Assembly: GCF_003018115.1 (NCBI RefSeq)
Contig: NZ_CP027457.1
DNA length: 64,000 nt
Strand: one strand, 5' to 3'
DNA from: Escherichia coli
Lineage (GTDB): Bacteria; Pseudomonadota; Gammaproteobacteria; Enterobacterales; Enterobacteriaceae
Positions 27,001 to 33,000 of the stretch are shown in pieces (positions within the stretch are counted from its first letter, which is position 1; every line of letters starts with the position of its first letter). The position numbers were made by a program.

Positions 27001-30000
27001 TTGAGAGGATTAGCAGCGGCTCTTTCCTGCGCATTTGTCCGATCGGATTTGGTATATACCGCACCGATACCAAAGCCATCATAAACATAAGTTGAGGAGA
27101 TACCGAAACCGTCACCGTTGGCACGCGTGTAGTCAGCACCATAAAGATGACTGTTGTCAGTACGTTCATTTTTGCCTTGATATTGCGCGGCAAAGTTCAG
27201 CCCTTCAATTAAGCCAAAGAAATCGTAGTTGCGATAGGTTGCTACACCGGTGGTACGGTATGTCATGAAGACATCTTTCTGACTCCAGGTATCGCCACCA
27301 AATTCTGGCAACATATCGGTCCATGAACCAATGTCATAGCCGACACCGTAGTTACGACCATAGTCCAGAGAGCCAAATTCACTAATTTTTAAACCAGCAT
27401 AGGCCAGACGGGTCTTGTTGCCGCGCGAGCCGTTGGCTTCATCGTTATAGCCTTTAAAATCATATTCCCAGTGACCAAAACCAATCATTTGATCATTGAT
27501 TTGCGTTTCTCCTTTAAAGCCGAGACGGGCATAAGTTTTATCACCATCGTCACGCTTATCATCAGTAAAATAACGTAGAGCGGTAACCTTGCCATAAAGG
27601 TTGAGTTTATTACCATCCTTGTTATAGACTTCGGCAGCGTGTGCTACGTTCGCAGCTAACAAACCAGTTACAACCACCGCAACTATTTTTAATTTCATTT
27701 AACAGAATCCTTTTAATTATCGTTAAACGTATTTTCTAAACGAATTTTAAACGGCGTCATTTATAAATGACATACTGTTTTTAAAATAGAATGGTGATTA
27801 AAAACAATGAGAAAAATAGATGAAATAATATTATTTATCGATATGTGATCGAAGTCGAAATGAGATATAAGGTGAATTACTGGTATTCGAAATTTATTTT
27901 TTAATATTGTCGGAATTTATCTGATTAACTGCCAGGCCGTAGACCCGGCAATTATTTTAACCACGACGTGTCGCCAGCCAGCAGAGCAGAGAACCGCCGC
28001 AGACCATTAGCGCGCCTTGCCAGAACGAGAACGACAGCGGGGCGCTGAGCAGCACGGCTGCAAGCGCTGAGGAAAGTACGGGCGTAAAATACGAACCTAC
28101 CGCCATTATGGTGACGTTACCATGCAATATACCGACATTCCATGCAGCATAAGCAAATCCTAAGGTAAATGCAGCAGAGATGAGTTTAATCATGACGGGC
28201 GTGCTAAATACCATTTCTGGTTGTGGCGTGAGAAAATAGTAAATCCACAGACTTGCTCCCGTTAGCAGGACAAAAACGGTAATTCCGTTAAATCCGCGTG
28301 CGTATTTATTCGTTACTGTGCAGTAGGCTGCCCAGATAAACGCACCAATGAACGCCAGGAAATAACTCAATGGGCTGGTGGTGATATTATTGATGATTTC
28401 ATCATAATGTAACCCATTGTCACCGCCTAACACCCAGCAGACGCCGACGAGGGCTAATAATAATCCTGGTACAATCAGCCAGTTGGTTTTCTGACCATTA
28501 AACAGAATGGCAAAGAGAATTGTCAGGCTGGGCCACAGATAGTTCACCATACCCACTTCAATCGCCTGATGACGGGTCGCCGCATACCCTAAGGAAAGCG
28601 CCAGACAGATTTCATAGCTGACGAATAACAGACTCCCGGCGAGTAAATAGCCTTTCGGGATTTGCCGAATACGCGGAAATCCAACCGTGAAGATTAACAG
28701 CAGCCCGCTTAATGAATAGATAGCAGCTGCGCCGCCGACCGGGCCGAGCCCCTCACTGACACCGCGAATCAATCCTACCATCGTGCTCCACAGGACGATC
28801 GCTATCAGCCCTATGAGCGTTGCTTTTTGTCGTGTCATGCTCGCTGTTTTGTCTCTTTTGCCGTTAAAAATTAAGCTGAATTTTATAGCATTTTTTTAAC
28901 TGGCCTGTCAGGCAGTGGTGCGTTTTTCTACCGCTATTGAGGTAGGTCAATTTGCGCAGGCGGATTATTTTGTGGCAAACAGATGTTCTTTTTGATTTCG
29001 CGCAAAAAGATTCAGAATTTTACTGTTAGTTTCCTCGCGCAGTAATACCCCTGAAAAAAGAGGAAAGCAATGGACGTCAGTCGCAGACAATTTTTTAAAA
29101 TCTGCGCGGGCGGTATGGCTGGAACAACAGTAGCGGCATTGGGCTTTGCCCCGAAGCAAGCACTGGCTCAGGCGCGAAACTACAAATTATTACGCGCTAA
29201 AGAGATCCGTAACACCTGCACATACTGTTCCGTAGGTTGCGGGCTATTGATGTATAGCCTGGGTGATGGCGCTAAAAACGCCAGAGAAGCGATTTATCAC
29301 ATTGAAGGTGACCCGGATCATCCGGTAAGCCGTGGTGCGCTGTGTCCGAAAGGGGCCGGTTTGCTGGATTACGTCAACAGCGAAAACCGTCTGCGCTACC
29401 CGGAATATCGTGCGCCAGGTTCTGACAAATGGCAGCGCATTAGCTGGGAAGAAGCATTCTCCCGTATTGCGAAGCTGATGAAAGCTGACCGTGACGCTAA
29501 CTTTATTGAAAAGAACGAGCAGGGCGTAACGGTAAACCGTTGGCTTTCTACCGGTATGCTGTGTGCTTCCGGTGCCAGCAACGAAACCGGGATGCTGACG
29601 CAGAAATTTGCCCGCTCCCTCGGGATGCTGGCGGTAGACAACCAGGCACGCGTCTGACACGGACCAACGGTAGCAAGTCTTGCTCCAACATTTGGTCGCG
29701 GTGCGATGACCAACCACTGGGTGGATATCAAAAACGCTAACGTCGTAATGGTAATGGGCGGTAACGCTGCTGAAGCGCATCCCGTCGGTTTCCGCTGGGC
29801 GATGGAAGCGAAAAACAACAACGATGCAACCTTGATCGTTGTCGATCCCCGTTTTACGCGTACCGCTTCTGTAGCGGATATTTACGCACCTATTCGTTCC
29901 GGTACGGACATTACGTTCCTGTCTGGCGTTTTGCGCTACCTGATCGAAAACAACAAAATCAACGCCGAATATGTTAAGCATTACACTAACGCCAGCTTGC

Positions 30001-33000
30001 TGGTGCGTGATGATTTTGCTTTCGAAGACGGCCTGTTCAGCGGTTATGACGCTGAAAAACGCCAGTACGATAAATCGTCCTGGAACTATCAGTTCGATGA
30101 AAACGGCTATGCGAAACGCGATGAAACACTGACTCATCCGCGCTGTGTGTGGAACCTGCTGAAAGAGCACGTTTCCCGCTACACGCCGGACGTCGTTGAA
30201 AACATCTGCGGTACGCCAAAAGCCGACTTCCTGAAAGTGTGTGAAGTGCTGGCCTCCACCAGCGCACCGGATCGCACAACCACCTTCCTGTACGCGCTGG
30301 GCTGGACGCAGCACACCGTGGGTGCGCAGAACATCCGTACTATGGCGATGATCCAGTTGCTGCTCGGTAACATAGGTATGGCCGGTGGCGGCGTGAACGC
30401 ATTGCGTGGTCACTCCAACATTCAGGGTCTGACTGACTTAGGCCTGCTCTCTACCAGCCTGCCTGGTTATCTGACGCTGCCGTCAGAAAAACAGGTTGAT
30501 TTGCAGTCGTATCTGGAAGCGAACACGCCGAAAGCGACACTGGCTGGTCAGGTGAACTACTGGAGCAACTATCCGAAGTTCTTCGTTAGCCTGATGAAAT
30601 CTTTCTATGGCGATGCCGCGCAGAAAGAGAACAACTGGGGCTATGACTGGCTGCCGAAGTGGGACCAGACTTACGACGTCATCAAGTATTTCAACATGAT
30701 GGACGAAGGCAAGGTTACCGGTTATTTCTGCCAGGGCTTTAACCCGGTTGCGTCCTTCCCGGACAAAAACAAAGTGGTGAGCTGCCTGAGCAAGCTGAAG
30801 TACATGGTGGTTATCGATCCGCTGGTGACTGAAACCTCTACCTTCTGGCAGAACCACGGCGAGTCGAACGATGTCGATCCGGCGTCTATTCAGACTGAAG
30901 TATTCCGTCTGCCTTCGACCTGCTTTGCTGAAGAGGATGGTTCTATCGCTAACTCCGGTCGCTGGTTGCAGTGGCACTGGAAAGGTCAGGACGCGCCGGG
31001 CGAAGCGCGTAACGACGGCGAAATTCTGGCGGGTATCTACCATCATCTGCGCGAGTTGTACCAGGCCGAAGGTGGTAAAGGCGTAGAACCGCTGATGAAG
31101 ATGAGCTGGAACTACAAGCAGCCGCACGAACCGCAATCTGACGAAGTAGCTAAAGAGAACAACGGCTATGCGCTGGAAGATCTCTATGACGCAAATGGCG
31201 TGCTGATTGCGAAGAAAGGTCAGTTGCTGAGTAGCTTTGCGCATCTGCGTGATGACGGTACAACCGCATCATCTTGCTGGATCTACACCGGTAGCTGGAC
31301 AGAGCAGGGCAACCAGATGGCTAACCGCGATAACTCCGACCCGTCCGGTCTGGGGAATACGCTGGGATGGGCCTGGGCGTGGCCGCTCAACCGTCGCGTG
31401 CTGTACAACCGTGCTTCGGCGGATATCAACGGTAAACCGTGGGATCCGAAACGGATGCTGATCCAGTGGAACGGCAGCAAGTGGACGGGTAACGATATTC
31501 CTGACTTCGGCAATGCCGCACCGGGTACGCCAACCGGGCCGTTTATCATGCAGCCGGAAGGGATGGGACGCCTGTTTGCCATCAACAAAATGGCGGAAGG
31601 TCCGTTCCCGGAACACTACGAGCCGATTGAAACGCCGCTGGGCACTAACCCGCTGCATCCGAACGTGGTGTCTAACCCGGTTGTTCGTCTGTATGAACAA
31701 GACGCGCTGCGGATGGGTAAAAAAGAGCAGTTCCCGTATGTGGGTACGACCTATCGTCTGACCGAGCACTTCCACACCTGGACCAAGCACGCATTGCTCA
31801 ACGCAATTGCTCAGCCGGAACAGTTTGTGGAAATCAGCGAAACGCTGGCGGCGGCGAAAGGCATTAATAATGGCGATCGTGTCACTGTCTCCAGCAAGCG
31901 TGGATTTATCCGCGCGGTGGCTGTGGTAACGCGCCGTCTGAAGCCGCTGAATGTAAACGGTCAGCAGGTTGAAACGGTGGGTATTCCAATCCACTGGGGC
32001 TTTGAGGGTGTCGCGCGTAAAGGTTATATCGCTAACACTCTGACGCCGAATGTCGGTGATGCAAACTCGCAAACGCCGGAATATAAAGCGTTCTTAGTCA
32101 ACATCGAGAAGGCGTAAGGGGGCGAACAGATGGCTATGGAAACGCAGGACATTATCAAAAGGTCCGCAACTAACTCCATCACGCCGCCTTCTCAGGTGCG
32201 TGATTACAAAGCAGAAGTCGCGAAACTTATCGACGTTTCCACCTGTATCGGCTGTAAAGCCTGTCAGGTGGCGTGTTCGGAGTGGAACGACATCCGTGAT
32301 GAAGTGGGGCACTGCGTCGGGGTTTACGATAACCCCGCCGATCTGAGCGCCAAGTCCTGGACGGTGATGCGCTTTAGCGAAACCGAACAGAACGGCAAGC
32401 TGGAGTGGCTGATCCGTAAAGACGGCTGTATGCACTGTGAAGATCCGGGCTGCCTGAAGGCGTGCCCGTCTGCTGGTGCAATCATTCAGTACGCTAACGG
32501 GATTGTCGATTTCCAGTCGGAAAACTGCATCGGCTGTGGTTACTGCATTGCCGGGTGTCCGTTTAATATTCCGCGCCTCAACAAAGAGGATAACCGGGTA
32601 TATAAATGCACGCTCTGCGTCGATCGCGTCAGCGTCGGCCAGGAACCGGCTTGTGTGAAAACCTGTCCGACCGGGGCTATCCACTTCGGCACCAAGAAGG
32701 AGATGCTGGAGCTGGCGGAACAGCGCGTGGCGAAACTGAAAGCGCGTGGTTACGAACATGCTGGCGTCAACAACCCGGAAGGGGTCGGTGGTACGCACGT
32801 TATGTACGTGTTGCATCACGCCGATCAGCCGGAGCTGTATCACGGTCTGCCGAAAGATCCGAAGATCGACACCTCGGTAAGCCTGTGGAAAGGCGCGTTG
32901 AAACCGCTGGCAGCGGCTGGCTTTATTGCCACTTTTGCCGGGTTGATTTTCCACTACATCGGTATTGGCCCGAATAAGGAAGTGGACGATGACGAGGAGG

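Follow-up and report, generated by a model that had tools for sequence, protein, structure and literature searches.

Reading frame and identity of fdnG

A TGA codon within an otherwise open frame may be a mutation, a boundary between two genes or a codon read as an amino acid, and which of these applies is the question raised by fdnG, the gene for the alpha subunit of formate dehydrogenase-N, in the Escherichia coli DNA analysed here (64,000 nucleotides (nt) of contig NZ_CP027457.1, RefSeq assembly GCF_003018115.1; this whole stretch is referred to as the window). Two open reading frames (ORFs) are listed on the plus strand at this locus, 29070-29657 (195 aa, ATG start) and 29706-32117 (803 aa). 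Their starts lie in one frame, (29706-29070) mod 3 being 0, and straight translation of 29070-32117 yields 1016 codons, of which just two are stops, the TGA of codon 196 (29655-29657) and the TAA at 32115-32117, confirming the claim of a first-pass annotation, made by a model from the sequence alone, that nothing but this TGA interrupts the frame. The start-defined ORFs are 48 nt apart rather than adjacent because the second one is counted by the ORF tool from the following ATG, at 29706, and the frame itself is open again from 29658. Judged from its sequence, the gene is an intact E. coli fdnG, encoding the catalytic subunit of the nitrate-inducible formate dehydrogenase-N, and we consider it nearly certain that the in-frame UGA at codon 196 is a selenocysteine (Sec) codon, recoded by the standard bacterial mechanism, and not a stop.

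29070-32117, plus strand: fdnG, formate dehydrogenase-N alpha subunit, 1015 residues including Sec196, assigned from the single frame, RefSeq, TIGR01553 and a PDB match.
29058-29063, plus strand: Shine-Dalgarno-like AAGAGG, 6 nt before the fdnG ATG, from reading of the sequence and a pattern scan.
29655-29657, plus strand: UGA codon 196, assigned to selenocysteine (molybdenum ligand) and followed by His197 (29658-29660); aligned to X196 of 1KQF (PMC3636253).

The identity of the gene was established from profile and structure matches. The NCBIfam equivalog TIGR01553 (cut-off 814.2 bits) aligns to the two halves of FdnG over profile positions 1-194 (279.5 bits) and 196-1009 (1318.4 bits) of 1009, so that the profile continues across the TGA, for which a single position remains, and the C-terminal part alone scores above the cut-off (1318.4 versus 814.2 bits). 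Over residues 1-312, FdnG does not differ from chain A of PDB entry 1KQF, which carries X, a non-standard residue, at 196, the position of the TGA, and the match of residues 197-1015 to this chain scores 1934.8 bits. Nucleotide identity, 98.5% to K-12 fdnG versus 74.8% to fdoG, assigns the gene to fdnG. At the level of sequence, the identity of the gene, its single frame, the position of the codon, the hairpin that follows it, the residues described below, the twin-arginine motif and the operon partners are thus established.

These alignments also bear on the possibility that the locus holds two genes, one for a small iron-sulfur protein (29070-29657) directed to the Tat (twin-arginine translocation) pathway and one for a separately initiated molybdopterin protein. 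The ATG at 29706 is in frame and does open an ORF of 803 codons, but no Shine-Dalgarno-like sequence precedes it (the 15 nt upstream are TTTGGTCGCGGTGCG), and a protein started there would lose His197 and the rest of residues 197-212, which are identical in K-12 and 1KQF. Moreover, TIGR01553 runs unbroken across the junction (1-194, 196-1009) and the solved structure is a single chain of 1015 residues, and we give the two-gene arrangement practically no weight.

The SECIS element downstream of the UGA

The first-pass annotation had also pointed to a short hairpin after the TGA, and the hairpin is there: it is recognised as a selenocysteine insertion sequence (SECIS) by the Rfam covariance model, at 84.3 bits, and is identical to the one in K-12.

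29652-29710, plus strand: bacterial SECIS (Rfam RF01989, SECIS_3), found with the Rfam covariance model, inside the coding sequence (CDS) and translated as codons 195-214.
29669-29686, plus strand: apical stem-loop GGUAGCAAGUCUUGCUCC for SelB binding, at nt 15-32 when the U of the UGA is 1, placed by folding and published SECIS rules.

The match to SECIS_3 covers the full model (1-59 of 59) with an E-value of 1.6e-19 and a score well over the gathering score of 63, and SECIS_3 is the sole Rfam family above threshold in the window. The UGA of the model (positions 4-6) falls on 29655-29657, codon 196 in the frame of fdnG, and from the UGA onward the hairpin is base-for-base the K-12 element. Folding of the sequence after the UGA keeps the expected structure, with the apical element GGUAGCAAGUCUUGCUCC at nt 15-32 folding as ((.(((((...))))))) at -4.5 kcal/mol. 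The determinants of SelB binding lie at their canonical positions, the bulged U17 at 29671 and the loop nucleotides G23 and U24 at 29677 and 29678, and the apical stem begins 11 nt after the UGA; a review of E. coli SECIS elements names U17, G23 and U24 as the SelB contacts and places the apical stem-loop at the same distance of 11 nt from the UGA (PMC8659212). On the covariance match and its identity to K-12, the SECIS hairpin is taken to be present and intact.

Expected selenocysteine insertion at codon 196

UGA is the leakiest of the stop codons, and the window alone proves nothing on which amino acid is inserted; ordinary near-cognate suppression, with Trp or Cys placed at codon 196 and the hairpin merely slowing the ribosome, would therefore also carry translation through the gene. 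The published work on K-12 speaks against such suppression. FdnG and FdoG contain one selenocysteine each, at position 196 and with UGA as its codon, mass spectrometry detected the peptide V-U196-HGPTVASLAPTFGR, Cys was never found at this position and Sec always, and in a selC mutant translation terminates at codon 196 (PMC3636253). The translation of the window around the stop, ARV-stop-HGPTVASLAPTFGR, is an exact match to the observed peptide, in line with the first-pass annotation, which had named this TGA as the known Sec codon of formate dehydrogenase-N. The exact spacing of U17, G23 and U24 and a SECIS score well above threshold likewise speak against leaky decoding, and we hold near-cognate suppression to be exceedingly improbable. 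Selenocysteine recoding of fdnG is long known and part of the textbooks (Berg et al. 1991; Jormakka et al. 2002), so that no new biology is claimed here; the K-12 study cites Berg, Li, Heider and Stewart 1991 for the original demonstration and Jormakka et al. 2002 for the structure (PMC3636253).

By analogy with what has been published for K-12, the strain of the window would be expected to show SelB binding and Sec insertion, export by Tat and an active enzyme, and the following sequence of events can be proposed. The mRNA directly after the UGA would fold into the SECIS hairpin, whose apical loop (G23, U24) and bulged U17 would be bound by SelB together with GTP and Sec-tRNA(Sec), the selC product. 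With the ribosome at UGA196, the tethered SelB would bring Sec-tRNA(Sec) into the A site, competing there with release factor 2, and the hairpin would then be unwound by the ribosome and read as codons 197-212. Sec196 would provide the selenium ligand of the molybdenum bis(molybdopterin guanine dinucleotide) cofactor, with His197 and Arg446 beside it in the active site. Guided by the twin-arginine signal, FdnG would cross the membrane by way of the Tat translocase, already folded, loaded with its cofactor and paired with FdnH; at the periplasmic face, FdnGH with the cytochrome b subunit FdnI would oxidise formate and reduce menaquinone in nitrate respiration.

Conservation of the frame and of the TGA codon

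The fdnG genes of the window and of K-12 MG1655 are both 3048 nt long and align without indels, with TGA at codon 196 in each. They share 98.5% identity at the DNA level, and 39 of the 45 substitutions fall at third codon positions, with four amino-acid changes in all (L342F, M435I, D493G and S666A). An alignment to K-12 FdnG that includes U196, which the first-pass annotation had put forward as a check, thus finds the same codon 196, no frameshift and no extra stop. Since the substitutions are mostly synonymous and remain so for 2.4 kb past the TGA, they indicate a translated sequence under purifying selection and not the decay of a pseudogene.

The same gene is found throughout the species: 5,425 of 5,426 complete E. 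coli genomes match the 3048-nt stretch over at least 80% of its length, and the feature is annotated there as fdnG, formate dehydrogenase-N subunit alpha. The five best matches are RefSeq genomes of O169:H41 and enterotoxigenic E. coli (ETEC) type, which print as 100.0% identical but actually differ by one base. Identity over the 81 nt that surround the UGA is 95% or more in every one of the 5,425 genomes; among 30 evenly spread records listed, 28 are 98.8% identical over this stretch, corresponding to one mismatch, and in K-12 the mismatch is the synonymous site 29648, an A/G difference upstream of the UGA and the sole nearby difference from K-12.

A true nonsense mutation, which would leave fdnG a pseudogene giving a 195-residue fragment, agrees with the split of the gene by a plain ORF caller and with the fact that translation does terminate at codon 196 when Sec-tRNA(Sec) is absent (PMC3636253), but it is hard to reconcile with the same TGA codon in K-12 fdnG and in the paralogue fdoG, with the conservation of the surrounding 81 nt in 5,425 genomes, with 2.4 kb past the TGA that are free of any other stop or frameshift and whose substitutions are in the overwhelming majority synonymous, or with an intact SECIS and an intact CDS in RefSeq. 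We regard a nonsense mutation as vanishingly improbable and retain the reading of codon 196 as a selenocysteine codon.

One expectation of the first-pass annotation, that an automated pipeline would call a pseudogene here, did not hold. In both strain F9792 and K-12, the RefSeq Prokaryotic Genome Annotation Pipeline (PGAP) lists one intact CDS (3048 nt) that carries a protein accession and is not flagged as a pseudogene, and only a naive ORF caller splits the gene. Current RefSeq annotation therefore already handles the recoding of fdnG, and the case matters for annotation hygiene only: scans that take TGA as a stop report fdnG, fdoG and fdhF as split genes or pseudogenes, and such calls can be cleared quickly by an Rfam SECIS match, codon-level identity to K-12 and a synonymous pattern of substitution past the stop.

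Signal peptide, cofactor residues and points against recoding

29070-29168, plus strand: Tat signal peptide, codons 1-33, with SRRQFFK at codons 4-10 (29079-29099), a hydrophobic core and A-L-A at 31-33, by direct reading.
29217-29345, plus strand: codons of the [4Fe-4S] ligands Cys50, Cys53, Cys57 and Cys92, all four of which are cysteines in the window.

The N-terminus of FdnG reads MDVSRRQFFKICAGGMAGTTVAALGFAPKQALA followed by QA and contains the Tat motif S4-R5-R6-Q-F-F-K10, a core, ICAGGMAGTTVAALGFA, with a mean Kyte-Doolittle value of 1.51, and A31-L-A33; residues 1-33 are identical to those of 1KQF and K-12 FdnG. K-12 FdnG has a typical Tat signal peptide (PMC10609526; also PMC3636253), and the Tat signal that the first-pass annotation had proposed is upheld by the SRRQFFK motif, by this identity and by the literature. 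Tat-dependent export and cleavage of FdnG are known for K-12 and would be expected to occur here in the same manner.

Further downstream, the residues of the cofactor sites are in place. Pfam Molybdop_Fe4S4 (PF04879) matches residues 44-104 at 64.7 bits, a region that includes the four [4Fe-4S] ligands as assigned in K-12 (PMC3636253), His197 and Arg446 are present and aligned with 1KQF, and the Pfam domains follow in the expected order, Fe4S4, molybdopterin oxidoreductase and molybdopterin-dinucleotide-binding.

Several observations weigh against this account of the gene. In the first place, the generic hidden Markov models of Tat signals were not reported in the first profile scans of the window proteins, and the isolated N-terminus, although it aligns at the right residues, stays below their cut-offs (TIGR01409, 12.3 versus 16.7 bits; PF10518, 12.8 versus 22.7 bits), so that the Tat assignment rests on the motif, the identity to K-12 and the literature. 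Secondly, the 51-nt hairpin has a minimum free energy of -14.6 kcal/mol versus a mean of -12.5 kcal/mol for shuffled sequences (z = -0.76), a stability reached by 41 of 200 shuffles. Unusual stability is not a trait of short SECIS hairpins, nor is it a defining criterion of the Rfam SECIS family; nevertheless, with a folding energy at chance level the hairpin alone is no evidence, and folding energy was dropped as an argument for the SECIS in favour of the covariance model and comparative identity. Thirdly, selA, selB, selC and selD do not lie in the window, which contains no tRNA, and the presence of this machinery in the strain is deduced from the species as a whole: a tRNA-Sec, searched for with K-12 selC and annotated as tRNA-Sec, is found in 5,424 of 5,426 E. 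coli genomes.

The last of these points concerns the missense change M435I, eleven residues before the active-site Arg446. The change (30374 G>A, ATG to ATA at fdnG codon 435) falls in the conserved segment LLLGN-x-GMAGGGVNALRG (LLLGN-x-G-AGGGVNALRG) and is private to the window: 30340-30408 has matches in 5,190 E. coli records but an identical counterpart in none of them, and codon 435 is ATG in K-12 and in each of the five closest genomes. Sequence comparison suggests that M435I is probably neutral, because Ile is the native residue at position 435 in the active Desulfovibrio vulgaris enzyme; it could also be a sequencing error. That M435I measurably alters catalysis or cofactor handling by formate dehydrogenase-N, or that the UGA and SECIS act as a further selenium-dependent gate on the expression of fdnH and fdnI, appears very unlikely, and our analysis provided no positive evidence either for a functional effect of M435I or for such a gate. 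None of the points that weigh against selenocysteine recoding favours another explanation.

The fdnGHI operon and its flanking signals

32130-33014, plus strand: fdnH, for the iron-sulfur beta subunit, with its start 12 nt past the stop of fdnG (TIGR01582, 477.6 bits versus 334.7; RefSeq).
33007-33660, plus strand: fdnI, cytochrome b gamma subunit, overlapping the end of fdnH by 8 nt (NF007558; RefSeq start, ATG).
28929-28944, plus strand: candidate NarL/NarP 7-2-7' inverted heptamers TACCGCT-AT-TGAGGTA, with 2 mismatches to TACYYMT-NN-AKRRGTA.
28992-29005, plus strand: FNR-like site TTGATttcgCGCAA, with 2 mismatches to TTGAT-N4-ATCAA.
33682-33715, no strand assigned: terminator-like hairpin AAAATGGCGCTT-TAAG-AAGCGCCATTTT with a T-run after it, in the spacer of the convergent genes fdnI and yddM, from reading of the sequence.

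Both partner subunits follow fdnG directly, and the gamma subunit is of the formate dehydrogenase-N type: FdnI scores 486.5 bits on the corresponding model, NF007558 (cut-off 339), versus 268.1 bits on the formate dehydrogenase-O model NF007924. Four ORFs antisense to fdnG and fdnH (389, 253, 267 and 314 aa) had no Pfam match and were taken as spurious.

Transcription of fdnG is activated by FNR and NarL. The 231-bp intergenic region upstream of the gene differs from K-12 at 2 positions and holds the FNR-like site and, with its centre 62 bp upstream of that site, the NarL/NarP candidate. A scan for sigma-70 promoters upstream of fdnG found nothing, as expected for an activator-dependent FNR/NarL promoter. 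A 7-2-7' NarL/NarP site has been reported for fdnG (PMC2718512), and the FNR-like and NarL/NarP candidates, both obtained by a pattern scan, are presumed to be the published fdnG sites.

At the other end of the operon, the hairpin at 33682-33715 consists of 12 perfect base pairs preceded by an A-run and followed by a T-run, and by its sequence it is probably a bidirectional terminator shared by fdnI and yddM. A simple terminator scan did not list it; sub-threshold Rfam matches to the terminator-containing small RNA models STnc320, STnc240 and SdsR were obtained on both strands. As a separate observation, yddM itself (33711-34073 region, minus strand; L001 24642-24926), directly downstream of fdnI, is annotated as a HigA-family antitoxin, and no adjacent toxin is annotated.

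Other features of the window

Just upstream of yddG and fdnG lie two genes that are in a different state in K-12. The porin gene at 26598-27698 (minus strand) is intact, encodes 366 aa and is annotated ompC in F9792, whereas its K-12 counterpart is a porin fragment, the yddL pseudogene; and espR1, a leucine-rich-repeat gene resembling type III secretion effectors at 23853-25127 (minus strand), corresponds to a frameshifted leucine-rich-repeat gene in K-12.

Differences from F9792 are unevenly distributed. Over 41.5 kb, 86 of 112 mismatches to this strain fall within 4 kb, at 14000-18000, covering yddE-narI-narW-narH, which suggests a patch of recombination amid nearly identical sequence; a 1-nt indel relative to F9792 is located at 15390, in the yddE-narI intergenic spacer. 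The first part of the window, 1-12500, is a graveyard of Rhs elements, with one intact gene for an RHS core protein (about 3652-7845, L005 coordinates), several truncated RHS fragments, three copies of ISAs1/ISEc1 transposase genes and an IS1 remnant. This arrangement is present over at least 80% of its length in 5 of 5,426 genomes, and its best match, at 99.5%, is the ETEC isolate L7_E1373 (NZ_LR882990.1).

Comparison with known systems

The closest known system is fdnG of K-12 (b1474), which has the same length and TGA codon, a SECIS identical from the UGA on, and identical Tat signal and residues 1-312; the locus is also arranged alike, with the gene order fdnGHI, yddG upstream and yddM/adhP downstream. 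It differs from the window in the 45 substitutions and in L342F, M435I, D493G and S666A.

The paralogue fdoG, taken for this comparison from strain 97.3 (L004 1136-4186), likewise has TGA at codon 196, a nearly identical SECIS (96.3% over 81 nt) and a Tat-dependent heterotrimeric architecture (PMC10609526), whereas it is only 76.9% identical to fdnG in amino acids and 74.8% in nucleotides overall, lies at another locus, flanked by fdhD and fdhE, and has a gamma subunit that fits another NCBIfam model. The longest identical run between fdnG and fdoG, 62 nt from 29661, coincides exactly with the SECIS, the next longest being 36 nt, and codons 198-216 are all identical, versus 58% of the codons for conserved amino acids across the gene. 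Silent sites frozen over the RNA structure are as expected under a joint constraint on protein and RNA; gene conversion between fdnG and fdoG could have contributed to the 62-nt identity.

With regard to the annotation of this paralogue, the gene at L004 1136-4186 of strain 97.3 (NZ_CP061758.1) is named fdnG by PGAP, yet it is the paralogue fdoG, with fdhD on one side and fdoH-fdoI-fdhE on the other. Strain 97.3 shows a single matching place and therefore apparently lacks the true fdnG, and about 25 records in the 60-80% identity band of the fdnG search have the same cause.

The SECIS of fdhF, the gene for formate dehydrogenase-H, is the reference element in SelB binding studies, and we compared it with that of fdnG. 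In both, the hairpin lies directly 3' of the UGA, the base of the stem is G-G (nt 15-16), U17 is bulged, the apical loop contains G23 and U24, and the apical element starts 11 nt after the UGA. The stem sequences differ, the apical stem of fdnG is one pair longer, and its loop is a 3-nt GUC (or a 5-nt AGUCU) versus GGUC in fdhF. On the Rfam models, the fdnG element scores 28.8 bits with SECIS_2 (threshold 70) versus 84.3 bits with SECIS_3.

More distant relatives are the Sec-containing periplasmic formate dehydrogenases of Desulfovibrio vulgaris (FdhAB, PDB 6SDR) and D. gigas (PDB 1H0H). Although these are distant orthologues that use tungsten or molybdenum and have other partner subunits, with no cytochrome b of the FdnI type, their alpha subunits are homologous to FdnG over the full length (798 bits), with a twin-arginine N-terminus, a Sec aligned with position 196 and followed by His, and the motif LLLGNIG-AGGGVNALRG retained.

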